Positions 2,375 through 42,192 of a stretch of DNA of 64,000 nucleotides are shown in pieces. Made by a program: the position numbers and the translations under genes. The notes beneath the pieces are model-generated. The model made no database searches. It worked only from the letters and a program-made list of their open reading frames with translations, and was not told the origin of the DNA. Numbering within the stretch: position 1 is the stretch's first letter; every line of letters begins with the position of its first letter. Source of the stretch: Candidatus Poribacteria bacterium (lineage in GTDB: Bacteria > Poribacteria > WGA-4E > WGA-3G); NCBI GenBank assembly GCA_963663765.2, contig CAXXUA010000005.1, positions 1,504,001-1,568,000 of the forward strand, written 5' to 3'.

Positions 2375-3530
2375 TACCGTATTAACGGAATAGTTCTTGT
2401 TTATATTTTTTTGAAAATATGCTATTGTGAACAGATGAAAAAGAAAAAACATGAGGTTCTCCCTCACTTTCCAGTAGAAGTTCTTAGACAAAGGTATCTT
2501 GAATGTAAATGTCATCGGGAACGGACGCATTGGCATATTATTTGGCTTCTTGCTGATACGACACATCCACGCACACCCCGCGAAGTTGCTGAGATTGTAG
2601 GATGCACTCCGGACTGGGTTCGCAAGTTGCTCAAACGCTATAATGCAGAAGGGGAAACAGCTCTACAAGATAAACGCAAAAACAATAAAGGCAAGCGTTT
2701 TTTGGATGAGAAACAGCAAGCAGCACTTGAAGCTGTGCTTTCTGAGCCCCCTGCTGATGGTGGTCTTTGGACAGGTCCGAAGGTAGCTGCGTGGATATCT
2801 GAGACCCTTCAGCGTCCTGTCAGTAATGTGTCAGGTTGGAAATATCTCAAGCGTCTCGGTTGGACTTTACAAACGCCTCGTCCACAACATCAGGCTGCTG
2901 CAACCCCCGAAGCACAGCAAACATTTAAAAAAAAACTTAAGGATCGGGTAGCTACGCTTGAAAGTCAGCACCCGGAGAAACCTGTAGAGATTTGGGCAGA
3001 AGACGAGACGCGCTTAGGCTTATTACCTGTTCATCGGCGTGTCTGGGCGAAGCAAGGTGAAAGACCGGTAGCCCCGGTGTGTCCAGCCTATAAATGGCTC
3101 TATAGTTTCGGTTTTGTCCGTCCGCAGACAGGTGAGACCTATTGGCTTCTGATGCCGAGTGTGAGTGTTGAAATCATGAACCTTGCGCTGGCAGAGTTTG
3201 CTCGTGATGTGAACCCGGAAGGCAAGAAACAGATAATCCTCTTGTTAGATCGTGCGGGTTTTCATACGGGTAAAGGTTTAGAAGTCCCACAAGGGATTGA
3301 GTTATTTTTTTTACCGCCGTATACACCGGAACTTCAACCTGCTGAACGCCTATGGCCTCTGTTGCGGGAGGTGGTTGTGAATAAAGTTTGGACAACACTA
3401 TCAGCACTTGAAGAAGTATTGGTAAAAAGGTGTCAATGGTTTTCCGAAAACAAAAAGAAAGTGCAGGCACACGTCGGTTTTCAGTGGATTTGCAAAATGG
3501 AAAAACAATACGACACGCGTTAATTTGGTA
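2375..3530 (+). mobile_element. IS630-family insertion sequence
   Basis: Imperfect IR TACCGTATTAACG / CGTTAATTTGGTA, flanked by TTA on both sides; encloses the transposase ORF. Confidence 0.85.
2435..3523 (+). CDS. IS630-family transposase (HTH + DDE)
   Basis: WAEDETRLG, LLLDRAGFH, LPPYTPELQPAERLW motifs; A9 run at 2927-2935 is in frame; ATG at 2435 preferred over TTG at 2411. Confidence 0.93.
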   Translation: MKKKKHEVLPHFPVEVLRQRYLECKCHRERTHWHIIWLLADTTHPRTPREVAEIVGCTPDWVRKLLKRYNAEGETALQDKRKNNKGKRFLDEKQQAALEAVLSEPPADGGLWTGPKVAAWISETLQRPVSNVSGWKYLKRLGWTLQTPRPQHQAAATPEAQQTFKKKLKDRVATLESQHPEKPVEIWAEDETRLGLLPVHRRVWAKQGERPVAPVCPAYKWLYSFGFVRPQTGETYWLLMPSVSVEIMNLALAEFARDVNPEGKKQIILLLDRAGFHTGKGLEVPQGIELFFLPPYTPELQPAERLWPLLREVVVNKVWTTLSALEEVLVKRCQWFSENKKKVQAHVGFQWICKMEKQYDTR

Positions 3531-3748
3531 TTAGTCCCGCCAAATGCCATACGGGGAATGCCTAAATGGCATTCATACCGTTGATTTGGCGCATTTGGCG
3601 TTGATTTGGTAGGGACGATATGTTTATTCTTCTATGTCGTTCCTATGGAACTCAAGAGAGGGTGATAACGTCTTTCTATAAACATTGCGTCCCTACGGGA
3701 CTAAATAGAACAAAAGTTTGTACCTCTGTGCAAAAACTTTACACACAC

Positions 3749-4406
3749 TGACATCATCAGTGAACTTGCTACTTATGGTATAATCAAAGAATCTTCTGAT
3801 GGTATGTGTGAGATTCTCAATCCAATTTATCTCTACCGCATCATGAGAACTTTTAAGCCAATTGTAAACGGTTTAGAAGAAAATTACTTATCCGAAGATA
3901 ATAGCGACGGTTTTTCTGATTATCTCACACCTGCTGGACACATTGAGATTGAAGCACTTCTGGATAATTTCCGTGATTTTATTGCACGTGTAGGATTCAG
4001 GATTTTACAAGTACCCGATACACCCCAGGAGTCTGTTGGTAGGTATCTTCTGATTGCTTATCTTGACCAGTCTGTTAAGCTGATTGGCGGGTTTTTGCAC
4101 ATTGAGGTGCAAACCGGCAGAGGTAGAATGGATATCATTATCACTCACTATCAGCGGAAATATATCGTAGAGACAAAGATTTGGAGAGGTGATAACCACC
4201 GTTATCAGTCAGGCAAAAAGCAGCTTGCAGTCTACCTAAAGTCTGAGGGAGTAACGGAGGGATACTATATCGTCTTTGATCATCGGGAGAATCCAGAGCC
4301 GCGGGTTGAAACAGAAACGATTGATGGCTTGATGATACGGAGTTATGTTATTCCTGTGCTGCAGGAGCTGCCATCGGAAAGTCAAGACACTCGCGAAATC
4401 AACTAA
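3749..4406 (+). pseudogene. 5'-truncated copy of the AAA-ATPase/PD-(D/E)XK gene; only the nuclease part remains
   Basis: 3749-4372 is near-identical to 9832-10452 (3-nt insertion plus substitutions); starts at the base immediately after the MITE end. Confidence 0.88.
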
Positions 4407-4417
4407 AAAAGAGTGTT

Positions 4418-7192
4418 TTAGTCAATTCCATGCTCCTCGCAATAGTCTTGTATAATTGGTAAAAAATCATCTGCGTATTTTTCAACTTTCCTCAGACTGA
4501 CCCCACGAATCTGCACGAACGCCTCTCTGGTTTTCGGAAAAGAGGTAGCTATTTCTCTTAACATCCCATCAGTGAAAATCCCTTCTTGCTCTGCCTTTTC
4601 TAATATTTTACACTTGTCTTGAAGTTGCTCAAAAAGTTCCTGAGAATATCCACTTTGTCTTTCGGAGATAGTCTCAGAAGTATTCAATGTTTCAGGTCCC
4701 TCCGCTGTTGAGTCAATCCCAGGTTCTTGACAATACGCACGAATAATCGGTAAAAAATCATTGACGTATCTTTCTGTTTTTGACGGTCCCACACCATACA
4801 TCAATTGAAATGTTTCTTTAGTAGTCGGAAAATAGGTTGCCATTGCTTGTAGTGCCTTATCATGAAAAATCACAAAATGTTGCACTCCTTCTGCAATTGC
4901 TAATCTGTTGCGTTCCACACGAAGCAATTCAAAAAGTTCAGGAGAATAATCAAGCGGGAATTCGGATATTTCACTATCTACTGCATCAACAGAAAATCCT
5001 AAAAACTGCACTTCGTTTCTGAGGATACGCCATCCAGCATTTGTCAAACTGAGACCACCGTGTTGCGAATCTCGTGTTAACAGTTCATGTTGGATAAAAT
5101 GGTAAGATAAATATCGCCACTGTGACTTGCTGTAATCCTCTCCAATTCCATGTGTAGAAAGATGGTCATGTTCATTTTCAAGAATCTGTCTCTTCTGTGA
5201 ACCCCGCAAAACATCAATGATATATGCTTCCCCGAATCTCTGTCCAGTCCGGACAACACAAGAGAGAAATTTTTGTGCGGGTATTGTCAAATCAACCCGT
5301 TCCACATCTAACCTACGGCAGTTGTCACATTTCCCACAATTCTGTATGTCGTATTCCTCTCCGAAGTAAGCAAGTAACAATTTCCGTCTGCATTCTATTG
5401 AAGTTGCCCAAGCAACCAATGTATGCAAACGTTCTTGTCGCCCTTGTCTTTCTGAATGTGCCCCTTGTTCAATGAAATAGTTGTTGGTGTCTACATCGCC
5501 ATAACTTAATAGCAGCAGACATTCCGCCGGAAGTCCATCTCGACCACTGCGACCAATCTCCTGATAATAAGATTCAGGTTCCTTCGGTAAACCAACATGT
5601 AACACAAAGCGAACATTTGCTTTATCAATCCCCATACCAAAAGCAAGTGTGCCAACTATCACTCGGACTTCACCGTTGATAAAAGCATGTTGATTTTGCC
5701 GTCGTGTTGTATCATCAAGTTTTGCATGATAGGGCAGAACAGACATCCTGCGTGCGGTTAAATTACGACACAATGATGTAACTTGTTTTATCGTTTGACA
5801 ATATATGATACCGGATTCACCATCGTGTTTTTTAAGAAACGCGAGTGTTTGTGGAAGCGATTCAACCTTAGGTTCAACTGCTAAAAATAGGTTTGATCTG
5901 TCAAAACTGGCAATGAAATCATATTCATCAGGAATTTCCAACAACCGCTTGATGTCATTTTGTACTCGCGGAGTAGCTGTGGCTGTTAACGCAACACAAA
6001 CAGAATTAGCAAATCGTTCACGAATAGAAACTAATTCTCGATAATCGGGACGAAAATCGTGACCCCACTGTGAAATACAGTGAGCCTCATCAATCGCAAG
6101 ACATTCGACATTTGATTCATCAAGCATTACAAGTATTTCAGGGCGGACAAGCGTTTCAGGGGCAACGTAGAGTAACTTGATTTCTCCCTGTCTGACCGCT
6201 TGCATTGTTCCTACATATTGTGAATGATTAAGGGTACTGTTGAGAAAAGCGGCAGGAATACCTCGATCTTGTAACTGCATTACCTGGTCCTCCATGAGTG
6301 AAATCAGAGGGGAAACAACGATGGTTAAACCTTCAAAAATGAGTGCTGGCAATTGGTAGCAGAGCGACTTTCCACCACCGGTTGGCAAAACAATAAGTGC
6401 ATCTTGTCGTCTTAGGATGTGCTCAATTATTTCCTCCTGCAATGGGCGAAACTGTCCATGTCCGAAAACGTTTATGAGAATCTCTGAGGGTGTTTGCGTT
6501 GAGGTGGGTTGAGATCTTAGCTCGTCTTCTCTGGGTCGTTCCGTTTCTGCCTGTTCTACCTCTTGAAAAAACCAGCCAGAAATCTGGGCGTAACACCGTT
6601 CTTCAACTTCAGGGTTATCGTCCGGTCTCCACCGATGTGCTAATGAAACGCGTAGGACCATGCCTGCGGGAATTGTCTCAAGTGGCTCTTGGAATCCTAC
6701 GTAAGTAAGTGTGCAACCACCATTTTCAGTAGGATAACGGTATCGTATCCGTCTATCCTCTGTATCGCGGATAAGTGGTTTGTCTGTTCGCCAAAATGTA
6801 GTACTGTAAGGGGGCACATCACCTCCTGCAGATACGTAAAGGGCTCCACTGCTTGTGCTATTCAATAAACCTTCATAGAGCACTCGCGGATTTCCAGTTT
6901 TCGGTGGCAATAAGAGTTCAATCGCCCCCACTAGATAATTCGTGTTTGTTATTGCTTGTATATGATGTTTTTCACGAACAACAATGTCTTCTACATGTGG
7001 CGGAATCAATGAAGTTTCTGGTATAGGTTCAGCTGTTATCTCCCAAATATCGCCAACTTCATATTCTCTATTTGCACCGTCCTGTGGATTAGCGTTAAGT
7101 GGAATAAGGCGAACGCTTTCCCCTTTTTCTGTAATCGCACCGATACAAGCACCTTTACCCATTCGCGTCTTGGCAACAATTAAAACTCTCAC
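4418..7192 (-). CDS. recQ: RecQ-family helicase fused to an N-terminal ~210-aa dual-OB-like domain; RQC plus two HRDC domains
   Basis: LPTGGGKS, DEAHCISQWGHDFRPDY, LTATA, QEIGRSGRDG, CRR..CGKCDNC; N-terminus (IVAKTRM..CIGA..VRL ... RVSLAHRW..CYAQISG) resembles the dual-OB proteins that accompany DUF488; GTGA overlap with the upstream gene. Confidence 0.9.
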   Translation of the reverse strand: MRVLIVAKTRMGKGACIGAITEKGESVRLIPLNANPQDGANREYEVGDIWEITAEPIPETSLIPPHVEDIVVREKHHIQAITNTNYLVGAIELLLPPKTGNPRVLYEGLLNSTSSGALYVSAGGDVPPYSTTFWRTDKPLIRDTEDRRIRYRYPTENGGCTLTYVGFQEPLETIPAGMVLRVSLAHRWRPDDNPEVEERCYAQISGWFFQEVEQAETERPREDELRSQPTSTQTPSEILINVFGHGQFRPLQEEIIEHILRRQDALIVLPTGGGKSLCYQLPALIFEGLTIVVSPLISLMEDQVMQLQDRGIPAAFLNSTLNHSQYVGTMQAVRQGEIKLLYVAPETLVRPEILVMLDESNVECLAIDEAHCISQWGHDFRPDYRELVSIRERFANSVCVALTATATPRVQNDIKRLLEIPDEYDFIASFDRSNLFLAVEPKVESLPQTLAFLKKHDGESGIIYCQTIKQVTSLCRNLTARRMSVLPYHAKLDDTTRRQNQHAFINGEVRVIVGTLAFGMGIDKANVRFVLHVGLPKEPESYYQEIGRSGRDGLPAECLLLLSYGDVDTNNYFIEQGAHSERQGRQERLHTLVAWATSIECRRKLLLAYFGEEYDIQNCGKCDNCRRLDVERVDLTIPAQKFLSCVVRTGQRFGEAYIIDVLRGSQKRQILENEHDHLSTHGIGEDYSKSQWRYLSYHFIQHELLTRDSQHGGLSLTNAGWRILRNEVQFLGFSVDAVDSEISEFPLDYSPELFELLRVERNRLAIAEGVQHFVIFHDKALQAMATYFPTTKETFQLMYGVGPSKTERYVNDFLPIIRAYCQEPGIDSTAEGPETLNTSETISERQSGYSQELFEQLQDKCKILEKAEQEGIFTDGMLREIATSFPKTREAFVQIRGVSLRKVEKYADDFLPIIQDYCEEHGID

Positions 7193-7677
7193 GGTAAAAT
7201 ATCTTCAACCTCCAAATTGAATGTTTTCGCTAATTTATTCGCTACTAATGAGCGATGACATGCTTCTGGTGTAGTTTCCACACAAAAGAGGGCTACAACT
7301 CTTGCATCCGATTCTAATTCGTTAAGCAAACTTTGTGGGTCAAACGCATCAAGGCATTCGGTGTGATAAGCCTCAATAAACGCCTCTCCAAGTTCAGTCC
7401 GTTTGCGTTTAGCGGTCTTCGTTGCTTTATCAGCCGCAGCTTGTTTCTCCCGTACTACTTTCGTTGGACCGAGGTCTTTACGATAGATATATCGGATACC
7501 AAGCTCTGCAAGGCGCGCTTGCAAGCGCTTACTATTAGCAAATGCATAAGTTGCGCCACGTACACCCCGTCGATTACGAATATCACAGAAAGTATCAACG
7601 TCTGCTTTGCACAAAGCGTTAAAAAAACTGGTTTCGTCAAATCCGTATACACCTATAGTTACAATTTTAATTTCCAT
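7189..7677 (-). CDS. DUF488-family protein (second type)
   Basis: TIG, CDIR, ALFCVETTPEACHRS motif; probable ATG at 7677. Confidence 0.88.
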   Translation of the reverse strand: MEIKIVTIGVYGFDETSFFNALCKADVDTFCDIRNRRGVRGATYAFANSKRLQARLAELGIRYIYRKDLGPTKVVREKQAAADKATKTAKRKRTELGEAFIEAYHTECLDAFDPQSLLNELESDARVVALFCVETTPEACHRSLVANKLAKTFNLEVEDILP

Positions 7678-7678
7678 A

Positions 7679-8236
7679 TTAATCAGAGTATTTCTTCCGC
7701 GAGTGGAACGTCTCCTCTCCAAAAAGATTTAGCTGTCCACCTGTGATGCGATCAATTACCTGTTCTTGCGTGATTTGTTCGCTGTTTTCGTCGATGTGAA
7801 TCACAGGTAAGTTCTGATGCGTGAGGGTAGTACTAATGAGTTTAGTTCGGTGGCAATGCTCAGGTTTCCCTTCAGCACACATCAGTGCAATGCGCTGTTG
7901 TTGTGAAAAAGCAGTGTGCAGACGTTCAATACCCCGCTGATAGAATTCAGCATTTTTGACCTTTTCGTAGTCAACCATTCCGTTGACATAACACGACTCA
8001 TCGTCAGGTTTCCCACCCAGAAGATCTCCCATAAAGACATATCGGATACCATGTTTTTCCACTTCATTTGCAAGCTGCTTTTTGGAGAATTCCGGCTTAT
8101 AACTTGAGTGCGGAACTGAACGGACATCTATGAGATATACGATCTCGTATTGTTGTAACACTTCAATAAACTCCGCTATTGAACGGCTTCCATACCCTAT
8201 CGTCCAGATTGGAATGATGTCTGTTTTGTTTTTCAT
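7679..8236 (-). CDS. DUF488-family protein (first type)
   Basis: IWTIGYG, LIDVRSVPHS, LGGKP, ALMCAEGKPEHCHR, VIHI motifs; probable ATG at 8236. Confidence 0.92.
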   Translation of the reverse strand: MKNKTDIIPIWTIGYGSRSIAEFIEVLQQYEIVYLIDVRSVPHSSYKPEFSKKQLANEVEKHGIRYVFMGDLLGGKPDDESCYVNGMVDYEKVKNAEFYQRGIERLHTAFSQQQRIALMCAEGKPEHCHRTKLISTTLTHQNLPVIHIDENSEQITQEQVIDRITGGQLNLFGEETFHSRKKYSD

Positions 8237-8245
8237 GATAGGTAG

Positions 8246-8274
8246 ATAATAGCACAAAGATGTATAAGAATCAA
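8246..8274 (-). promoter_or_regulatory. Sigma70-type promoter for the DUF488-DUF488-RecQ operon (near-leaderless)
   Basis: TTGATT-17 bp-TATTAT with extended TG; ATG lies 9 nt after the -10 box. Confidence 0.6.
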
Positions 8275-8422: not shown

Positions 8423-8763
8423 CAGGATTATTTAGTTTTCAATATTTTTGATAATATTTTGCTATAACGTTAAATTTATGTGTTGCCATCTTGTCCATGT
8501 CTTTAGTCCCGTAGGGACGATATGTTTATAGAAAAATGTTATCTACCCCTCTTGAGTTCCGTAGGAACGGCATAGAAGAATAAACATATCGTCCCTACCA
8601 AATCAACGCCAAATGCGCGTATGGCATTTGGCGGGACTAAAGACCGATATTCAGGTTTCAATAATCTAAAATTGATGGATAAGGTCCAGTTAGGAAACCG
8701 CATTTGGGTATTAACTTTCAGTAAATCGCAATAACAGAAAACTTTTAAAACTGAATAACCCTG
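8423..8763. mobile_element. MITE with CAGG-type TIR carrying GTCCCGTAGGGAC hairpins
   Basis: CAGGATTATTTAGTTTT ... AAAACTGAATAACCCTG; reverse-orientation relative of 18489-18900. Confidence 0.75.
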
Positions 8764-8809: not shown

Positions 8810-8842
8810 GCTGTATATGATGTTTTGTACATGGAGAGAAAA

Positions 8843-10471
8843 ATGAGGTGTTTTTGGACTCAAGGTCCTGTCAATTCTCAAGAGCATTATGTTGTTTCGC
8901 GCACCGAAGAAATTGCAGACTATATCAACCGTGTGGAACAAGGCAAGTATGTTGTCCTTTTCGCACCACGGCAAACAGGTAAAACCACCTTCTTTAAAGT
9001 TGTCTTAGATAAACTTACTGCAGTTCAATCTGAATCTACTAAGCTCTTAAATTACTTTCCAATTCAACTAAATTTTGATATTTATAAAAACCTTGACCAA
9101 ACGACATTTTATAACCATTTGTACGAACAGATCAGTGAAGAAATAGAAATAGTTTTTCAAAAACGTGGTGTTGTTCCATCAGCGGATTTAGTTCAATTCT
9201 TGGATAACACAGCCTTATCAGATCATCTCTCAATGTTGTCGTTTTTTAAACGGTTCGAGAGTTTTCTAAACTCTGAATTCAATGGACAACAGTTTGTCAT
9301 TATCATTGACGAATTTGATGGTATCCCGCAAGTCGCAGTAAACGATTTCCTGCACACGCTCCGCCATATTTACATTGCAGGTAAACCACGGTGTCCACAC
9401 AGTGTTGGTATTGTTGGGGTTAAGAGCATTGCGCAACTCAACTATGACCGCTCAATTTCACCCTTCAATATCCAAGATGAGTTCCATCTACCCAACTTTA
9501 CACTTGGACAAGTACAGCAACTGCTTGCACAATATACGGATGAAGTTGGACAACCTTTTGAACCTGAGGTTATAACGTCAATTCATAAGCAGACTGCAGG
9601 ACAACCTATGCTTGTCAACAGATTGGCTCAGATTCTCACTGAAGAACTGGACATACCGAAAACTGAACCAATTACATTAGCACATTTTTCAAAAGCACAC
9701 GCACAACTCCTCCATGAAAAGAACACAAATATTGAGCATTTAACAACCAATATCCGAAGAGACGCACGCTTTGAAAGTATTCTGATGCGAATTATGGAAC
9801 GCGATGAAGGCGTTGAATTCAATTTGGACTATGACATCATCAGTGAACTTGCTACTTATGGTATAATCAAAGAATCTTCTGATGGTATGTGTGAAATTCT
9901 CAATCCAATTTATCTCTACCGCATCATGAGAACTTTTAAGCCAATTGTAAACGGTTTAGAAGAAGATTACTTATCCGAAGATAATAGCGACGGTTTTTCT
10001 GATTATCTCACTCCTGCTGGACACATTGAGATTGAAGCACTTCTTGATAATTTCCGAGATTTTATTGCACGTGTAGGATTCAGGATTTTACAAGTCCCCG
10101 ATACACCCCAAGAGTCGGTTGGTAGGCATCTTCTGATTGCTTATCTTGACCAGTTTGTTAAGCTGATTGGCGGGTTTTTGCACATTGAGGTGCAAACCGG
10201 CAGAGGTAGAATGGATATCATTATCACTCACAATCAGCGGAAATATATCGTAGAGACAAAGATTTGGAGAGGTGATAACCGTTATCAGTCAGGTAAAAAG
10301 CAGCTTGCAGTCTACCTAAAGTCTGAGGGAGTAACTGAGGGATACTATATCGTCTTTGATCATCGGGAGATTCCAGAGCCTCGGGAAGAGACTGAAACAA
10401 TAGACGGCTTGATGATTCGGAGTTATGTTATTCCTGTACTGCAGGAGCTGCCTTCAGGGGTTCTAAAGTAA
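8843..10471 (+). CDS. AAA-like P-loop ATPase with C-terminal PD-(D/E)XK nuclease domain
   Basis: APRQTGKT Walker A, IIIDEFD Walker B, SPFNI, GQPMLVN; C-terminal GRMDI..IVETK; ATG at 8843 follows GGAG. Confidence 0.88.
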   Translation: MRCFWTQGPVNSQEHYVVSRTEEIADYINRVEQGKYVVLFAPRQTGKTTFFKVVLDKLTAVQSESTKLLNYFPIQLNFDIYKNLDQTTFYNHLYEQISEEIEIVFQKRGVVPSADLVQFLDNTALSDHLSMLSFFKRFESFLNSEFNGQQFVIIIDEFDGIPQVAVNDFLHTLRHIYIAGKPRCPHSVGIVGVKSIAQLNYDRSISPFNIQDEFHLPNFTLGQVQQLLAQYTDEVGQPFEPEVITSIHKQTAGQPMLVNRLAQILTEELDIPKTEPITLAHFSKAHAQLLHEKNTNIEHLTTNIRRDARFESILMRIMERDEGVEFNLDYDIISELATYGIIKESSDGMCEILNPIYLYRIMRTFKPIVNGLEEDYLSEDNSDGFSDYLTPAGHIEIEALLDNFRDFIARVGFRILQVPDTPQESVGRHLLIAYLDQFVKLIGGFLHIEVQTGRGRMDIIITHNQRKYIVETKIWRGDNRYQSGKKQLAVYLKSEGVTEGYYIVFDHREIPEPREETETIDGLMIRSYVIPVLQELPSGVLK

Positions 10472-10759
10472 AATTGAGCACACTGTGAAGCCGAATAAGT
10501 AGCGTGTTTCAATCGTTCCTATATACTCAATTGTATCCCCCTTTGACCACGTAGACCTATCTTACCAAGCAACATACTGATATTATGAACCCTCTTTCCT
10601 AAGTCTGTAGTAGATGCAGTTACTGGGGCAGCAAAAGAGAGGGTTGAGCAGATTCTGTTTATAGAGTTGTACGAACAAGAATCTTCTTGATAATTGGTAG
10701 AGATTGGGTTATCATAATTTAAACGCTTCACTTCCGAAACAAATTCTTAGGTTTTAAAA

Positions 10760-12592
10760 ATGTCAGCAGATCTTACAATCTATTGTTTAGATCAAGTCAC
10801 AGATTACTTTGATTTTGAACGACTCTGCCATGACTTGATGGCTCGGGAGGGATATAGTTCTATTGAACCTCTTGGAAACTTCAAGGATAAAGGACGAGAT
10901 GCTATTCACGTAAACGAGTCTGATAAAACTACTATATTCGCGTATAGCGTTCGTGAGAACTGGCGGGTGAAACTCACCGAAGACGCGGAAAAGGTGCGTA
11001 AATATCAGCACACCTGCAACCAGTTTATATTCATTACGACTGCTAATTTCACAGCAGGTGAAAGGGACGAGGCAGTTGCAAATATTAAAAATGAATTCGG
11101 TTGGCAATTGGAACTCTTTGGTGTCGAACGCTTGCGAATTCTTCTTGACGTGTGTCATTCTCAGATTAAGAGACTACACCCAGGTATTTTCCCTCCAGAA
11201 TTTCTTGCAGTTCAAGATCGGATTGATAACTCAACAGAACGGCATCATCTTTTTATTAGTTGTGTTAGTAAAGATGGAGTGTTTGCAGATTGGTTAACTA
11301 GGAAGTTAACATCAGAAGGGTACCTTATATGGTGTGAACGGTTCAAGCTGCTTGGAGGTGAGACGTTTCCCGATGATATTGACGACGCAATTAAAAATAG
11401 AACTCTCAGATTTTTAGGTTTGTATTCAGAAGCGTCGATCAAAAATCAAGAGGTAATGCGCCAAAGATCGCTTGCTCTCAGCATGAGAAGTGAAGGTATT
11501 CAAGATTTTCTTATACCCTTGGATGTAGATGGTGTAAATCAGGAGCAGTTAGACAGTGTTACAAAGACATTGCAATTCGTTTCGTTTAAAGACAATTGGG
11601 CAGATGGACTAAAACAATTGCTAAAAAAACTGGAATCTATTGACTGTCCACCATTATTACCAAACGGAAAACGTATTGTTGCAGGAGCATTTTTAGGAAA
11701 TGATGTTCGATCGGACGAGGAAGAAACCCTATATTCAAATTGCTTACGAATTCTCCAGATACCGGAAATTATCCATCGTTTCACAGTAGAGGATGCAATC
11801 CCAAAGGAGAAACGTAATGAACTCAAGTCTGAATGGAGTTATCGAAAAGTTGATACAAATACATTGCTTAGTTTTCATAAGCCTCCTACTTCAATTGTTG
11901 AAGAGTACCGCGTGAATGAAATGGGAGGAGCTATATGGGCAAACACTACGAAAATAGATGGAATTTCGACATTTAACTTGGTGTCTGAACTTATCCGGAA
12001 AGCCTTGATTGTGAAGTGTCATCAGAAAGGCTTGCAATACTGCCATGACGCGAAGCTAGTTTATTTTCCTTCAGACCTTGTGGAGAAAAACCGACTTTAC
12101 TTTACTCGTCCTGATAGTAATTCAAATACCCATGTCCTTTCTAATGGAAAAAGAAAACATCCATCAGGTGGTGAATATTTATATACGCTTGCTCCCGACT
12201 TCTATGTACGTCAAGATCTTTTTGATGATTTCACAGTTCTAATTCGCATACGTGTTCGTCTTTCAGACATAGCGGGTAAAGCCTTCACTACTAAAAGTAA
12301 GATTAATTCACGAAGAAAAAATCTATGTAAATACTGGTGGAATAAGGATTGGCTTAACCGAACTTTGGCTGTTAGTCAATTTCTCGCGGATGACGGAAAG
12401 ATAATAATTGGTGAATTGCAAGACGCGCAAATCATCATTGATGCAAATCCGTTACAATTAAATGTTCCAATTGGAATTAACGAAGAGGTCTTTGATACAC
12501 TCAGTTCTGAACGTTCAGAATTGCTCAGCATCTATGATGAAGAAGAGTATTTAGACGAATATATTAGTGATGGTGAAATTAACGATGGATAA
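10760..12592 (+). CDS. REase(Mrr-like)-TIR-APAZ protein, partner of the short pAgo
   Basis: aa1-150 FERLC..DKGRD..W..K REase-like; aa163-300 LFIS..FADWL..KL..EGY.IWCE..FLIPL..W..GL TIR; aa320-600 EETLYSN ... RRKNLCKYWWNKDW APAZ; acidic tail as in SPARTA TIR-APAZ. Confidence 0.88.
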   Translation: MSADLTIYCLDQVTDYFDFERLCHDLMAREGYSSIEPLGNFKDKGRDAIHVNESDKTTIFAYSVRENWRVKLTEDAEKVRKYQHTCNQFIFITTANFTAGERDEAVANIKNEFGWQLELFGVERLRILLDVCHSQIKRLHPGIFPPEFLAVQDRIDNSTERHHLFISCVSKDGVFADWLTRKLTSEGYLIWCERFKLLGGETFPDDIDDAIKNRTLRFLGLYSEASIKNQEVMRQRSLALSMRSEGIQDFLIPLDVDGVNQEQLDSVTKTLQFVSFKDNWADGLKQLLKKLESIDCPPLLPNGKRIVAGAFLGNDVRSDEEETLYSNCLRILQIPEIIHRFTVEDAIPKEKRNELKSEWSYRKVDTNTLLSFHKPPTSIVEEYRVNEMGGAIWANTTKIDGISTFNLVSELIRKALIVKCHQKGLQYCHDAKLVYFPSDLVEKNRLYFTRPDSNSNTHVLSNGKRKHPSGGEYLYTLAPDFYVRQDLFDDFTVLIRIRVRLSDIAGKAFTTKSKINSRRKNLCKYWWNKDWLNRTLAVSQFLADDGKIIIGELQDAQIIIDANPLQLNVPIGINEEVFDTLSSERSELLSIYDEEEYLDEYISDGEINDG

Positions 12593-14087
12593 ATCAATTA
12601 TTGTTCTTAATGAACCAGAATTGGAATTTGGTTATGCACAGAGGATGACTGATCCACGTGATGGCTTAGCGATATTCGGTCCATATGATATCAAGTTGTC
12701 GTCACAGCCAGGGAAACTACCGCACATAGTCATTGGAACAGAGAAAGGAATAAATGATTTTAAAAAGTGGGCAGATATTATGAACCAGCCAGCGATTTTT
12801 GCTCCAAAAGGCAATCAAAGGCTTTGGCCTCCATTTCCTGGGTTTGAAGCCGCATTTTGTACGCAGTGGTCTAGTGAACCTGTTAAGACTTATCCAATTG
12901 ATCAGAATCAATTAATTAAGACTTCTCGTTATTCAGATAGGTATAAGCGGGTGTCTGGAGTTGTAGATTTTTACTTAGATCAATTGAAAAAAATAGACAT
13001 ACTTGATGAGAACATAGGCTTGGCAATCTGTGTAGTTCCTGATGAAATATGGCAAAACTGTCGTCCTGAGTCTAATGTTTCAGACTCAATTGGTGAGCGA
13101 ATCAATGCTAAAAGAATAAAAAGCAGAAAGGCTGGACAACTTGAGTTTTTTGATGAATTCAATCAAGAACAGTATAACTTTTCTACTGACTTTCGACAAC
13201 AATTAAAAGCGCGTGCAATGCAATACGGAATACCTCTGCAAATTCTACGCGAATCCACATTACGGTTGACAGATAGAAATATATTTAGAGAACGTTCTCT
13301 TACCCCACTCTCAGACCGAATGTGGAACATAAGCACGACACTTTATTATAAATGTGGTGGCAAACCATGGCGTCTTGTAACTGCTCGTGAAGGGGTTTGC
13401 TATATCGGGATTGCTTTTCGTCGTACTGATAAATCAAAAGATGGAAAAACTGCTTGTTGTGCAGCTCAAATGTTTCTTGATTCTGGAGATGGTATAGTAT
13501 TCCTTGGTGAATATGGGCCGTGGTATTCGTTAGAAACTGAACAATTTCACTTAAGTGAAGCTGCAGCATATAGTCTTTTAACTGGTGTTTTGGATACATA
13601 CAATAAACTTGAGGGTAAACAACTTAAGGAAATATTCCTACATTCACGTTCTGAGATTAGTAAGTCTGAGTTCAGAGGCTATCAGAAAGCTTGTCCACAA
13701 GATACAACCCTTGTAGGTGTAAAGGTGCGTCCGGATCGACTTGGTCCGAGATTATTCCGTACAGGCATGATGCCAGTTCTTAGAGGTACATTTTGGAGAC
13801 TTGATAATCGTTCAGGTTTTTTGTGGGGAAGTGGATTCAAGCCACGAATTGCGACCTATGATGGATGGGAAACGCCCGTTCCATTACGTATTGATATTCA
13901 ACACGGCGATGCCCCAATAGAAAGAGTGGCACAAGATATTTTTGGATTAACAAAGTTGAACTACAATGCATGTCATCTTGGAGAATCTCAACCTGTTACC
14001 GTTGGTTTTTCCAATGCTGTTGGAGAAATCTTGATTTCGAATCCTACTGTTTCAGTCCGAAGACCGCAATTCAAGTTTTACATATAA
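12585..14087 (+). CDS. ago: Short prokaryotic Argonaute (MID-PIWI, catalytically inactive), SPARTA-like clade
   Basis: EPELEFG..DPRDGLAIFGP, FPGFEAAF, QLKAR, QILRESTL, YYKCGGKPW, CCAAQMFLDSGDG, LTKLNYNAC, C-terminal FKFYI; ATG at 12585 overlaps the upstream stop by 8 nt. Confidence 0.95.
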   Translation: MDKSIIVLNEPELEFGYAQRMTDPRDGLAIFGPYDIKLSSQPGKLPHIVIGTEKGINDFKKWADIMNQPAIFAPKGNQRLWPPFPGFEAAFCTQWSSEPVKTYPIDQNQLIKTSRYSDRYKRVSGVVDFYLDQLKKIDILDENIGLAICVVPDEIWQNCRPESNVSDSIGERINAKRIKSRKAGQLEFFDEFNQEQYNFSTDFRQQLKARAMQYGIPLQILRESTLRLTDRNIFRERSLTPLSDRMWNISTTLYYKCGGKPWRLVTAREGVCYIGIAFRRTDKSKDGKTACCAAQMFLDSGDGIVFLGEYGPWYSLETEQFHLSEAAAYSLLTGVLDTYNKLEGKQLKEIFLHSRSEISKSEFRGYQKACPQDTTLVGVKVRPDRLGPRLFRTGMMPVLRGTFWRLDNRSGFLWGSGFKPRIATYDGWETPVPLRIDIQHGDAPIERVAQDIFGLTKLNYNACHLGESQPVTVGFSNAVGEILISNPTVSVRRPQFKFYI

Positions 14088-14634
14088 TTTTTCCAACCTT
14101 CATAAAGTCTCCCTCTCCAAACAAATTCAGCTGTCCACCAGTGATGCGATCAATTACCTGTTCTTGCGTGATTTGTTCGCTGTTTTCGTCGATGTGAATC
14201 ACAGGTAAGTTCTGATGCGTTAGAGTAGTACTAATGAGTTTAGTTCGGTGGCAATGCTCAGGTTTCCCTTCAGCACACATCAGTGCAATGCGCTGTTGTT
14301 GCGAGAAAGCAGTGTGCAGACGTTCAATACCCCGCTGATAGAATTCAGCAATATTCACCTTTTCGTAGTCAACCATTCCGTTGACATAACACGACTCATC
14401 GTCAGGTTTCCCACCCAGAAGATCTCCCATAAAGACATATCGGATACCATGTTTTTCCACTTCATTTGCAAGCGGCTTTTTGGAGAATTCCGGCTTATAA
14501 CTTGAGTGCGGAACTGAACGGACATCTATGAGATATACGATCTCGTATTGTTGTAACACTTCAATAAACTCCGCTATTGAACGGCTTCCATACCCTATCG
14601 TCCAGATTGGAATGATGTCTGTTTTGTTTTTCAT
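14071..14634 (-). CDS. Second, near-identical copy of the first-type DUF488 gene with an altered C-terminal tail
   Basis: 14107-14652 matches 7710-8254 with a 1-nt insertion near the 3' end; overlaps the pAgo 3' end by 17 nt. Confidence 0.85.
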   Translation of the reverse strand: MKNKTDIIPIWTIGYGSRSIAEFIEVLQQYEIVYLIDVRSVPHSSYKPEFSKKPLANEVEKHGIRYVFMGDLLGGKPDDESCYVNGMVDYEKVNIAEFYQRGIERLHTAFSQQQRIALMCAEGKPEHCHRTKLISTTLTHQNLPVIHIDENSEQITQEQVIDRITGGQLNLFGEGDFMKVGKIICKT

Positions 14635-14643
14635 GATAGATAG

Positions 14644-14672
14644 ATAATAGCATATTAGGAGTGAATTTTCAA
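14644..14672 (-). promoter_or_regulatory. Sigma70-type promoter for the second DUF488 copy
   Basis: TTGAAA-17 bp-TATTAT with extended TG; same geometry as 8246-8274. Confidence 0.55.
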
Positions 14673-18488: not shown

Positions 18489-18900
18489 CAGGGTTATTTA
18501 GTTTTAAGAGTCTTCTGTTATTGAGATTTACTGAAAGTTAATACCCAGGTTCGATTTCCTAACCGAACTTTCTGCATCAGTTTTAGATTATTGAAACATG
18601 AACATTGCTCTTTAGTCCCGTAGGGACGATATGTTTATAGAAAACAAATACCCTCCACAACTCTTTAGTCCCGTAGGGACGATATGTTTATAGAAAACGA
18701 ATACCCTCCACAGCTCTTTAGTCCCGTAGGGACGATATGTTTATTCTTCTATGTCGTTCCTACGGAACTCAATTGGGGTGGAAAACATTTTCTATAAACA
18801 TATCGTCCCTACGGGACTAAAGAAATGGACAAGATGGTAACCCATAAAATTAACGACATAGCAAAATAATATCAAAAATATTGAAAACTAAATAATCCTG
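18489..18900. mobile_element. MITE with CAGGG-type TIR and three tandem TTAGTCCCGTAGGGACGATATG arms
   Basis: CAGGGTTATTTAGTTTT ... AAAACTAAATAATCCTG. Confidence 0.8.
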
Positions 18901-39853: not shown

Positions 39854-40177
39854 ATGAAAACCGAAAAAGTATGGGATAACCCAATGGATTTGAAAGGTGC
39901 AGTGCAACAGTGGGCAGATCGCATCGGAGTTCAGGTGCGGGAGATCCATTTGCGTGAAATGCGACAAAAGTGGGCATCTATATCAACCAATGGAAGATTG
40001 ACACTCAACACCGACCTGCTTAACTTACCAAAAACGTTGGGTGAATTCGTAATTGTGCATGAATTGGTGCATTTACTCGTACCTAATCATGGAAAACTGT
40101 TTAAAGGTTATATGTCTGCGTATCTGCCTGATTGGGATGAACGACAGAAGCGTTTAAAATTACTACAACTAACGTGA
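39854..40177 (+). CDS. Short M48/YgjP(DUF45)-family metallopeptidase-like protein
   Basis: KWAS, VIVHELVHL..NH..F; ATGA overlap with hsdR; stop codon lies within the adjacent MITE TIR. Confidence 0.88.
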   Translation: MKTEKVWDNPMDLKGAVQQWADRIGVQVREIHLREMRQKWASISTNGRLTLNTDLLNLPKTLGEFVIVHELVHLLVPNHGKLFKGYMSAYLPDWDERQKRLKLLQLT

Positions 40178-42192
40178 GTTTGATAATTATATTGGACTTA
40201 CGCATTCCCCCTTAAATGAAGATTAATTTATTAGATTAATTTATTAATTGGGTAATAAATATATCTCCAACGGTAGGCGGGGAATGCCTTTTGGCATTCA
40301 TACCCGGGGAATGCCAAAAGGCATTCATACCGTTGATTTCTTGATTTGGTGCTTTGTAAGCGCGCTCCATACTCCCAAAAACTGCAGGCGTGCTTTGGAA
40401 GCGCGCTCCATACTCCCAAAAACTGCAGGCGTGCTTTGGAAGCGCGCTCCATACTCCCAAAAACTGCAGGCGTGCTTTGGAAGCGCGCTCCATACTCCCA
40501 AAAACTGCAGGCGTGCTTTGGAAGCGCGCCATCCCCGCCATCACCTGCTGGCATACCCCACGGCAGACGTGCTTTGTAAGCGCGCTCCATACTCCCAAAA
40601 ACTGCAGGCGTGCTTTGTAAGCGCGCCATCCCCGACCTCAACTGCTGGCATACCCCCACGGCAGGCGTGCTTTGGAAGCGCGCCATCCCCGACCTCAACT
40701 GCTGGCATACCCCCACGGCAGGCGTGCTTTGGAAGCGCGCCATCCCCGACCTCAACTGCTGGCATACCCCCACGGCAGGCGTGCTTTGGAAGCGCGCTCC
40801 ATACCCCCAAAAACTGCAGGCGTGCTTTGTAAGCGCGCACCCCAACTGCAGGCGTGCTTTGTAAGCGCGCTCCATACTCCCAAAAACTGCAGGCGTGCTT
40901 GTAAGCGCGCCATCCCCGACCTCACCTGCTGGCATACCCCCACTGCAGGCGTGCTTTGTAAGCGCGCTCCATACTCCCAAAAACTGCAGGCGTGCTTTGT
41001 AAGCGCGTTCCATACTCCCAAAAACTGCAGGCGTGCTTTGTAAGCGCGCCATCCCCGCCCTCACCTGCTGGCATACCCCACGGCAGGCGGGCTTTGTAAG
41101 CGCGCCATCCCCGACCTCACCTGCTGGCATACCCCCACTGCAGGCGTGCTTTGTAGGCGCGCTCCATACTCCCAAAAACTGCAGGCGTGCTTTGGAAGCG
41201 CGCCACCCAACTGCACTCCCCTGCAGGCGTGCTTTGTAAGCGCGCCATCCCCGCCCTCACCTGCTGGCATACCCCACGGCAGGCGTGCTTTGGAAGCGCG
41301 CCATCCCCGACCTCACCTGCTGGCATACCCCCCTGCAGGCGGGCTTTGTAAGCGCGCTCCCCAACTGCAGGCGTGCTTTGTAAGCGCACACCCCAACTGC
41401 ACTCCCCTGCAGGCGTGCTTTGTAAGCGCGCTCCATACTCCCAAAAACTGCAGGCGTGCTTTGGAAGCGCGCCATCCCCGCCCTCACCTGCTGGCATACC
41501 CCACAGCAGGCGTGCTTTGTAAGCGCGCCATCCCCGCCCTCACCTGCTGGCATACCCCACTGCAGGCGTGCTTTGTAAGCGCGCTCCATACTCCCAAAAA
41601 CTGCAGGCGTGCTTTGGAAGCGCGCTCCATACTCCCAAAAACTGCAGGCGGGCTTTGTAAGCGCGCTCCATACTCCCAAAAACTGCAGGCGGGCTTTGTA
41701 AGCGCGCCATCCCCGACCTCACCTGCTGGCATACCCCCACTGCAGGCGTGCTTTGTAAGCGCACTCCATACTCCCAAAAACTGCAGGCGGGCTTTGTAAG
41801 CGCGCCATCCCCGACCTCACCTGCTGGCATACCCCCACTGCAGGCGTGCTTTGTAAGCGCACTCCATACTCCCAAAAACTGCAGGCGGGCTTTGTAAGCG
41901 CGCCATCCCCGACCTCACCTGCTGGCATACCCCACGGCAGGCGTGCTTTGGAAGCGCGCTCCATACTCCCAAAAACTGCAGGCGGGCTTTGTAAGCGCGC
42001 TCCATACTCCCAAAAACTGCAGGCGGGCTTTGTAAGCGCGCTCCATACTCCCAAAAACTGCAGGCGGGCTTTGTAAGCGCGCCACCCAACTGCACTCCCC
42101 TGCAGGCGTGCTTTGTAAGCGCGCACCCAATAGTAGGCGTGCTTTGTAAGCGCGCACCGGTGGAAGTCATAACTATTTATCAAACTCACGTT
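40171..42192. mobile_element. 2-kb MITE inflated by a REP array
   Basis: Perfect TIR AACGTGAGTTTGATAA / TTATCAAACTCACGTT; near duplication ACAACT/ATAACT; small sibling at 52309-52434. Confidence 0.8.
40349..42157 (+). repeat. Array of about 40 REP arms with a few alternating linker types
   Basis: Core GCAGGCG(T/G)GCTTTG(T/G)AAGCGCGC; linkers TCCATACTCCCAAAAACT, CATCCCCGACCTCACCTGCTGGCATACCCCCAC and shorter ones. Confidence 0.92.

Follow-up and report, generated by a model that had tools for sequence, protein, structure and literature searches.

DUF488 is a very widespread protein family, encoded in 7 of the 14 model genomes that served as our controls, E. coli included. To our knowledge, no member has a tested function. 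Databases already hold sets of genes in which two DUF488 genes precede a gene for DuOB, a tandem OB-fold protein. In PADLOC, the nearest entries are the candidate systems PDC-M45 and PDC-M19. PDC-M45 is one of 145 candidates that guilt-by-embedding drew from BREX, DISARM and type I restriction-modification (R-M) loci (Payne et al. 2024, bioRxiv 10.1101/2024.01.29.577857). We focused on a related operon in a 64,000-nucleotide stretch of Candidatus Poribacteria DNA, hereafter the window (GenBank assembly GCA_963663765.2, contig CAXXUA010000005.1, positions 1,504,001 to 1,568,000). Here, at positions 4418-8274, genes for two DUF488 proteins, DUF488-A and DUF488-B, are followed by a gene in which DuOB is joined to a RecQ helicase. 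Because the operon recurs in 114 of 176 Poribacteria genomes and in most of 80 unrelated metagenome loci, the gene set is not new; the RecQ fusion represents a variant of a set that databases already know.

We interpret the three genes as probably encoding one DNA-processing machine, the RecQ-fused form of the DUF488-DUF488-DuOB cassette. The evidence regarding its biological role is split. With a probability of roughly 0.45, we favour a clamp-tethered, helicase-driven conflict system, directed against phages or plasmids, that would attack replicating foreign DNA. Repair of replication forks is the closest competitor and is set out below. Among the papers listed, our literature searches found no publication on this operon under DUF488, DuOB, or DUF488 and RecQ together, and none naming PDC-M45, PDC-M19 or their genes. 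As far as these searches go, neither the clamp tether nor the hotspot behaviour of the cassette is in print.

Three tightly coupled genes are inherited together

The minus strand carries three open reading frames in a tight row, each identified from the open reading frame and its Pfam matches. DUF488-A (8236..7679) encodes 185 amino acids (aa) from an ATG codon; the open reading frame list also offers an upstream TTG start at 8257. DUF488-B (7677..7189) encodes a 162-aa paralogue of DUF488-A with a basic insert. The third gene (7192..4418) starts with GTG and encodes the 924-aa DuOB::RecQ fusion. A gap of 1 nt separates the TAA of DUF488-A from the ATG of DUF488-B. The TGA of DUF488-B overlaps the start of the fusion gene as GTGA, and DUF488-B is translationally coupled on both sides. 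Both DUF488 translations contain the motif C-x-E-x5-C-H-R (MCAEGKPEHCHR and FCVETTPEACHR), which is kept by 50 of 50 DUF488-A orthologues and 54 of 55 DUF488-B orthologues. The original prediction, made from the sequence alone, had described the same tight coupling and the same motif, and both can be read directly. It had also proposed a single promoter. Just 5' of DUF488-A are TG-extended, promoter-like hexamers, TTGATT-17-TATTAT (8274..8246, minus strand), that match 9 of 12 consensus positions. The assignment as the operon promoter is plausible, being a consensus match only and one of 16 promoter-like sites counted against 10.9 in shuffled sequence. A look-up of RNA datasets for this stretch listed none.

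The coupling extends across genomes. Our count covers 30 genome loci with the fusion; a further 17 loci, which were plain RecQ of other phyla, were excluded. DUF488-B abuts the start of the fusion at all 30 loci and is preceded by DUF488-A at 29. At the one remaining locus, the contig ends before the DUF488-A position. DuOB is encoded by 114 of 176 Poribacteria genomes (88 of the 133 of high quality), always in single copy. A DUF488-B orthologue is present in 115 of the 176 and adjoins DuOB wherever both coordinates are listed. Identity between DUF488-B and its Poribacteria orthologues is 73-93%. Fragments of DUF488-B in three genomes (G090, G117 and G050) look like gene decay. In the genus of the window, DuOB is found in 21 of 39 genomes and has been lost from 18. 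DUF488-A is encoded by 39 of the 40 genomes of this genus in which it was sought, among them all 34 of high quality.

A metagenome search recovered 549 stretches with a DuOB relative. Counts were made for the best 80, of which 78 contain a DuOB open reading frame. Where there was room downstream, DuOB was fused to RecQ at 53 of 54 loci; where there was room upstream, both DUF488 genes were present at 51 of 60. The DuOB part is matched by at least 907 protein clusters with lengths of 508-1617 aa; the best 120 all contain DEAD and Helicase_C domains. Among DuOB representatives the stand-alone form dominates, with 104 proteins of 180-260 aa and 13 of at least 700 aa in the best 150. Elsewhere the module is sporadic (2 of 301 genomes in a sample of Verrucomicrobiota), and DuOB was found in none of the 14 control genomes. 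Taken together, co-inheritance, gene coupling and gene fusion suggest a single machine that combines a helicase with a DNA binder and two enzymes.

The fusion joins a dual OB domain to a complete RecQ

DuOB occupies aa 1-207 of the fusion (7192..6572, minus strand). The match to Pfam family PF22557 scores 87.7 bits against a cut-off of 27, aligning aa 1-207 with profile positions 1-210; in the genome search the score was 90.2 bits. An AlphaFold2 model, built from 83 sequences, is all-β with two barrels and has a mean pLDDT of 95. When this model was compared with the PDB using Foldseek, the best matches were all HIN-200 tandem OB proteins (MNDA, p202, AIM2 and IFI16; E 2.7e-5 to 1e-3). The 22 matches at E <= 1e-3 have TM-scores of only 0.29-0.39, as expected if the two barrels sit at a different angle. 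Searching solved structures with the DuOB sequence gave a chance match only (E 0.98). The domain match, the modelled tandem barrels and the HIN-200 similarity agree with the earlier assignment of the N-terminal ~210 aa as a dual OB domain.

After a low-complexity linker, aa 233-924 form a complete RecQ (4418..6496, minus strand). Beside DuOB, Pfam assigns DEAD, Helicase_C, RecQ_Zn_bind, RQC and two stretches of HRDC. Hence, every part of RecQ named in the original prediction is accounted for. The RecQ part also scores 709.9 bits with the NCBIfam recQ equivalog TIGR01389, for which the cut-off is 640.2. Walker A (GGGKS) and DEAH motifs are readable in the translation, and ATP-dependent 3'->5' unwinding is predicted. 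The type bacterial RecQ is that of E. coli. In common with bacterial RecQ, the fusion has the helicase core, Zn-binding, RQC and HRDC regions. Conversely, the N-terminal DuOB, the second HRDC, the obligate coupling to two DUF488 genes and the patchy distribution within the genus set it apart. The number of C-terminal HRDC domains differs among the fusions of different species, from one to several (L049, 8001-11756; L013, L018, L034 and L035). Extra HRDC-like tblastn segments suggest a range from one to at least four, and the fusions are about 745-1270 aa long.

A separate housekeeping recQ, which the original prediction had proposed to look for, did not emerge in canonical form. The genome containing the window is 97.8% complete and has a single RQC match, the fusion itself. 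Another contig carries a second RecQ-like gene, which has no RQC and, at 438 bits, does not reach the equivalog cut-off. No RQC match was obtained in five complete relatives lacking DuOB (5 of 5). Hence, judged by gene content, canonical RecQ in this lineage appears to exist only as the DuOB fusion, and to be dispensable. The RecQ part also matched the PADLOC models DpdF and PsyrT. We rejected these matches as evidence of defence because only the generic RecQ core was covered.

DUF488-A is predicted to have a phosphatase-like fold

Both DUF488 proteins exceed the cut-off of 22.2 bits for Pfam family PF04343, at 80.0 bits for DUF488-A and 48.1 bits for DUF488-B. By the Pfam rule neither is a member of DUF488-N3a (PF22751, the 'active N3 subclade'), where the scores are 24.2 and 25.7 bits and the cut-off is 27. 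NCBIfam has no family for either protein, and a search of solved structures with the DUF488-A sequence returned nothing at E <= 1. The AlphaFold2 model of DUF488-A, from an alignment of 50 sequences, has a pLDDT of 90.5 with a poorly ordered C-terminal tail. Alignment and model together locate an active-site-like motif, C120-A-E-G-K-P-E-H-C128-H129-R130 (7847..7879, minus strand). Residues C120, E122, P125, E126, C128, H129 and R130 are invariant among the 50 sequences. In the model, C120 lies at the end of a strand and is followed by a loop; C128, H129 and R130 begin the next helix.

Structural comparison pointed to cysteine phosphatases and to precorrin methylases alike. VIA-align gave DUF488-A Z-scores of 8.9 with KAP, 8.4 with laforin, 7.6 with SsoPTP and 7.0 with a baculovirus RNA 5'-phosphatase. 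The precorrin methylases CbiL and CbiF tied with these at 9.4, and the best Foldseek match had an E of 1.4e-3. The modelled protein may resemble protein tyrosine and dual-specificity phosphatases (PTP/DSP), and the RNA 5'-phosphatase, in its three-layer α/β fold, with a cysteine at the end of a strand and an arginine at the start of the next helix. Such an arrangement matches the geometry of a phosphatase P-loop. However, the loop of DUF488-A is C-x9-R (C120 to R130), and the phosphatase signature is C-x5-R. We describe DUF488-A, as modelled, as phosphatase-like and not as a member of PTP/DSP.

The tail of DUF488-A is predicted to dock on the β sliding clamp

Alignment and model also identify a β-clamp-binding-type pentapeptide, QLNLF, at aa 168-172 of DUF488-A (7721..7735, minus strand). 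Among 50 orthologues, the disordered C-terminus contains a conserved G-Q-L-x-L-F-G followed by S-R-K-R-Y. All 50 match Q[LMP]x[LF][FLW], with QLSLF in ten and QLDLF in one. We take the QL[SD]LF type to be the bacterial β-clamp-binding consensus. The pLDDT of the modelled tail is 67-81. A DUF488-A copy on a Rhodothermus plasmid, described below, reads QLNLF as in the window.

We modelled a DnaN dimer with residues 141-185 of DUF488-A, using a DnaN alignment of 25 Poribacteria sequences. The ipSAE interface scores were 0.62, 0.61 and 0.62, and the highest score among three controls was 0.00; the supplied alignments lie outside the predictor's calibration. The same ipSAE mark is reached by 116 of 157 solved complexes and by 2 of 215 mismatched pairs. 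At least 79% of contacts are common to the runs of the model, and the partner pLDDT is at least 57. Residues 165-173 of DUF488-A contact DnaN residues 170-176, 241-246, 319, 343-345 and 359-364, placing the modelled site in the cleft between clamp domains II and III. By comparison with the E. coli clamp, the contacted residues presumably form the canonical peptide cleft. The model thus supports docking of the DUF488-A tail on the β sliding clamp. Like the clients of the clamp, DUF488-A has its pentapeptide in a low-confidence C-terminal tail, shows the exact QLSLF form in some orthologues and is modelled in the clamp cleft. The difference is that the link of DUF488-A to the clamp is a predicted one, and we know of no DUF488 protein described as a clamp client.

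The genome containing the window has two tandem dnaN genes (C5:1144413-1146686, L147), encoding proteins of 368 and 373 aa that are 66% identical. Two or three dnaN matches are usual for genomes of the same family; sampled genomes of other families nearly always have one.

The operon occupies a defence hotspot

In relatives, the ancestral order is miaA, then a gene encoding an AAA_35 ATPase whose C-terminus is NERD/PD-(D/E)XK nuclease-like, then, convergently, the fusion, DUF488-B and DUF488-A. This order is syntenic across three families, and the AAA_35/NERD gene is the convergent neighbour of the fusion at 23 of the 30 genome loci. In the window, the complete AAA_35/NERD gene, recognised by Pfam, is at 8825..10471 on the plus strand and bounds the slot on its other side. 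Its 3' part is duplicated in truncated form at 3804..4406, also on the plus strand. Two direct duplications are present: 3749-4372 resembles 9832-10452 (95.7%), and 7707-8254 resembles 14104-14652 (97.3%). Between the duplicated flanks are two alternative cassettes in tandem, the first being the fusion with DUF488-B and the second a SPARTA-like pair. The latter consists of a Mrr-TIR-APAZ gene (610 aa) overlapping a gene for a short prokaryotic Argonaute (pAgo; 506 aa) at 10760-14087 on the plus strand, matching PADLOC SPARTA at 1.8e-85 and 9.6e-178. An orphan second copy of DUF488-A, the third DUF488 gene of the window, is convergent with the short pAgo gene at 14071..14634 on the minus strand. 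This duplicate is 97% identical to DUF488-A over aa 1-178 and differs in the last residues. NCBIfam has no family for the AAA_35/NERD gene and its PADLOC matches are only weak; it may itself be a defence gene. Another fusion locus (L033) has the same Mrr-TIR-APAZ and short pAgo pair downstream of its fusion.

We considered whether the tandem of RecQ and SPARTA cassettes was a mis-assembly of two strains. In two public runs, the depths of RecQ, SPARTA and flank contigs were similar, at 88.6, 68.3 and 77.2 in one and 196, 170 and 204 in the other. We rejected mis-assembly, as such depths would be expected from one genome, although the depth of contigs is only a weak guide. In two runs taken from other studies, which differ from the window at few positions, 10506-14258, the SPARTA region, is missing. 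One of these has a single contig on which the full AAA_35 gene is followed directly by the fusion. Hence, SPARTA appears to be a recent addition to the ancestral locus.

To survey the slot, we used the DUF488-A neighbourhoods of ten DuOB-less genomes of the genus. Nine were counted; G101, which is rearranged and has no defence-like neighbour, was left out. Beside DUF488-A, the slot contains a FokI-type R-M system of two methylases and a nuclease (G102), a CBASS cyclase with a 4TM effector (G092 and G087) or a SocA/Panacea gene (G095). Two further genomes have a type I methylase/specificity unit, accompanied by a PDC-M48B/LmuA-like gene (G088) or by PDC-M19A, itself a DUF488 fusion, and PDC-M19B (G098). 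The other three show a transposase at a locus that has moved (G078), small open reading frames of no recognised kind (G089) and an empty slot (G084). A recognised defence system therefore fills the slot in 6 of the 9 sampled genomes without the cassette. All 11 orphan DUF488-A copies examined keep C-x-E-x5-C-H-R and ten of them keep Q-x-x-L-F.

We conclude that the slot is a genuine defence hotspot, with DUF488-B and DuOB::RecQ as its oldest tenant and DUF488-A as one flank. The original prediction placed the operon in a slot equivalent to that of the pAgo cassette. Two pairs of flanks, 96-97% identical, bear this out, as do the FokI R-M, CBASS, type I R-M-like and PDC-M19 occupants in relatives. 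At the G098 locus (L144, 9950-15495), a 308-aa PDC-M19A and PDC-M19B, with a type I methylase and specificity subunit, stand beside an orphan DUF488-A. The same slot thus also accommodates a DUF488 candidate system of a second kind.

Stand-alone trios occur beside CRISPR genes and in a P2 hotspot

Paired DUF488 genes beside a stand-alone dual OB gene, described in the original prediction as a common arrangement, were seen in all four stand-alone contexts examined. Plasmid pRMAR01 of Rhodothermus marinus is the only DuOB match among 72,556 plasmids. It carries two DUF488 genes and a gene for a 236-aa stand-alone DuOB, which overlap and lie directly upstream of cas1, cas2, cas6, csx2 and csm6. 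A scan of a viral-contig collection identified three contigs with a DUF488-DUF488-DuOB trio in the same order; no DuOB match was found among 50,697 phage records. One of the viral contigs is a P2-like element in which the trio is between GPA and the portal gene. Two reports describe gpA-gpQ as a P2 hotspot of antiviral systems (Rousset et al. 2022, PMC9122126; again PMC13586616). Hence, the position of the trio corresponds to this hotspot. On viral contig L182 (4958-11514), which also has a terminase, the trio is ~4 kb from genes for a DnaN homologue, PcfJ/PcfK and a methylase.

The stand-alone trio (PF04343 and PF22557) and the operon share gene order, tight coupling and the C-x-E-x5-C-H-R motif. 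Three of four trio tails examined read Q-x-x-[LM]-F, and the fourth GLTTLF. The distinction is that in the operon DuOB is the N-terminus of a complete RecQ.

Comparison with PADLOC models placed the operon near PDC-M45. DUF488-A matches PDC-M45B at 2.6e-50 (aa 10-181 on positions 6-175 of the 204-position profile). DUF488-B matches PDC-M19A (1e-14) better than PDC-M45C, for which the match is weak (5.1e-11). The DUF488 pair thus matches M45B, M45C and M19A, and the Rhodothermus stand-alone trio gives the same pattern. Unlike PDC-M45, the operon has a fused RecQ of 690 aa. Among the matches listed, which for the fusion are the best 25 of 26 families, PDC-M45A was matched by none of the three operon proteins. 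DuOB alone matched no PADLOC family at E <= 1, and none of nine stand-alone DuOB proteins matched any model. Hence, the operon is not filed as a PDC-M45 member.

Biological role of the operon

A conflict role is suggested by the exchange of cassettes at the hotspot, the position of one trio in the P2 hotspot and of another beside CRISPR genes, the matches to PADLOC candidates and the patchy distribution. Briefly, the QLNLF peptide of DUF488-A would anchor the machine to β clamps and so to primer ends and replication forks. DuOB would hold DNA and RecQ would unwind it in the 3'->5' direction. The two Cys-phosphatase-like DUF488 sites might then target a phosphate-linked group on DNA, at an end or an adduct. 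In Poribacteria, the cassette would have become a long-resident, vertically inherited occupant of the defence hotspot next to miaA. A bolder proposal can be made. Here, the DUF488 proteins would be clamp-recruited phosphatases of polynucleotide ends or DNA adducts, and the machine would represent a new immune class that senses invaders by their replication intermediates. Riding clamps at primer termini and unwinding with RecQ, it would strip or alter ends so that foreign replication cannot finish. DUF488-A, given its presence in nearly all genomes of the genus beside any cassette that occupies the slot, would be a stand-alone clamp-bound sensor or enzyme. We regard this full proposal as unlikely.

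Several observations weigh against a conflict role. As described above, DuOB is nearly absent from mobile records, with one plasmid, no phage record and three confirmed viral-contig loci. Around the fusion, 15 unrelated metagenome contigs with long flanks carry mainly metabolic or housekeeping genes, and a neighbour suggestive of defence or mobility is present in only five (Cas6 twice; AAA_21/15 with SNF2; Uma2; ADP-ribosylglycohydrolase; rve). Ancestral synteny and the high identity of DUF488-B are unusually conservative for immunity genes. Similarity to PTP is middling, with Z-scores of 7-9, Foldseek E-values of at least 1.4e-3 and the wrong spacing of cysteine and arginine. Clamp-binding motifs typically belong to proteins of replication and repair and, since clamp-peptide complexes have already been solved, the score of the docking model may reflect likeness rather than proof. 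Finally, the fusion may simply be the RecQ of the lineage, as it passes the equivalog cut-off, is the sole RQC gene and has no RQC counterpart in the five relatives lacking the operon. Many of these points favour genome maintenance instead. In that case, the lineage's RecQ, an OB platform and two end- or adduct-processing enzymes would be recruited by the clamp to stalled forks or gaps for cleaning and restart, and the defence cassettes in the slot would be later insertions that destroyed a dispensable repair operon. An equivalog-grade sole RecQ, phylum-wide synteny at miaA, strong conservation, housekeeping flanks in 10 of the 15 contigs, and the clamp-type motif with its modelled docking all fit this explanation. 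So do the two runs in which the AAA_35 gene and fusion converge without SPARTA, marking the latter as a newcomer, and the DUF488-B remnants that resemble decay of an old gene. However, the cassette has been lost from almost half of the genus, and three of these genomes that were checked, all complete, have no replacement RecQ. In most of the sampled genomes, a recognised defence system has taken its place. Moreover, stand-alone trios are located in a P2-like antiviral hotspot and next to CRISPR genes, and the module is sporadic outside Poribacteria. Maintenance is possible, and we hold it to be somewhat less probable than the conflict role.

The trio might also be cargo that aids replication of its own mobile element, or that removes host DNA modification as a counter-defence, with the chromosomal fusion being a domesticated form. 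Its occurrence on three viral contigs and one plasmid, the DnaN homologue encoded ~4 kb away on one of those contigs and the clamp-type motif are consistent with such a role. Set against this, there are only three confirmed viral-contig loci and no phage record, most copies are chromosomal, and the P2-like trio is in an accessory hotspot outside the replication module. We consider an origin of this kind improbable. Least probable of all is that there is no joint function, an ordinary recQ lying merely downstream of two unrelated DUF488 genes. The 1-nt gap and GTGA overlap at the junctions, the co-presence and co-absence of DuOB (114) and DUF488-B (115) across 176 genomes, and the same order in distant phyla and with stand-alone DuOB make this very unlikely on the co-occurrence data. 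We thus retain the conflict system as the preferred interpretation.

The operon gives the DUF488 family a concrete, testable setting, with a covalent link to a well-understood helicase, a DNA-binding partner and a predicted clamp tether, the last of these newly noted here. If the defence interpretation is true, it adds a replication-coupled immune mechanism; if repair is the true role, it represents a RecQ pathway with dedicated end-cleaning enzymes. In either case, the slot in Poribacteria offers a clean natural experiment on how cassettes are exchanged at a defence hotspot.

Other features of the window

An IS630-type DDE_3 transposase gene (2411-3523, plus strand) and repeats resembling miniature inverted-repeat transposable elements, in inverted or direct orientation (3589-3705, 8423-8763 and 18489-18900), lie at the cassette junctions. 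In public runs, bins of the repeat have contig depths of thousands to tens of thousands, and the element is therefore highly repeated. Between miaA and the transposase, at 1486-1922, a 42-46 nt unit starting AGGCGTGCTTTGTAAGCGC is repeated ten times in tandem, and inverted copies related to this unit are at 1882-2125. Further away, a 2-kb block at 40001-42000 has a G+C content of 0.57, compared with about 0.40-0.45 around it.

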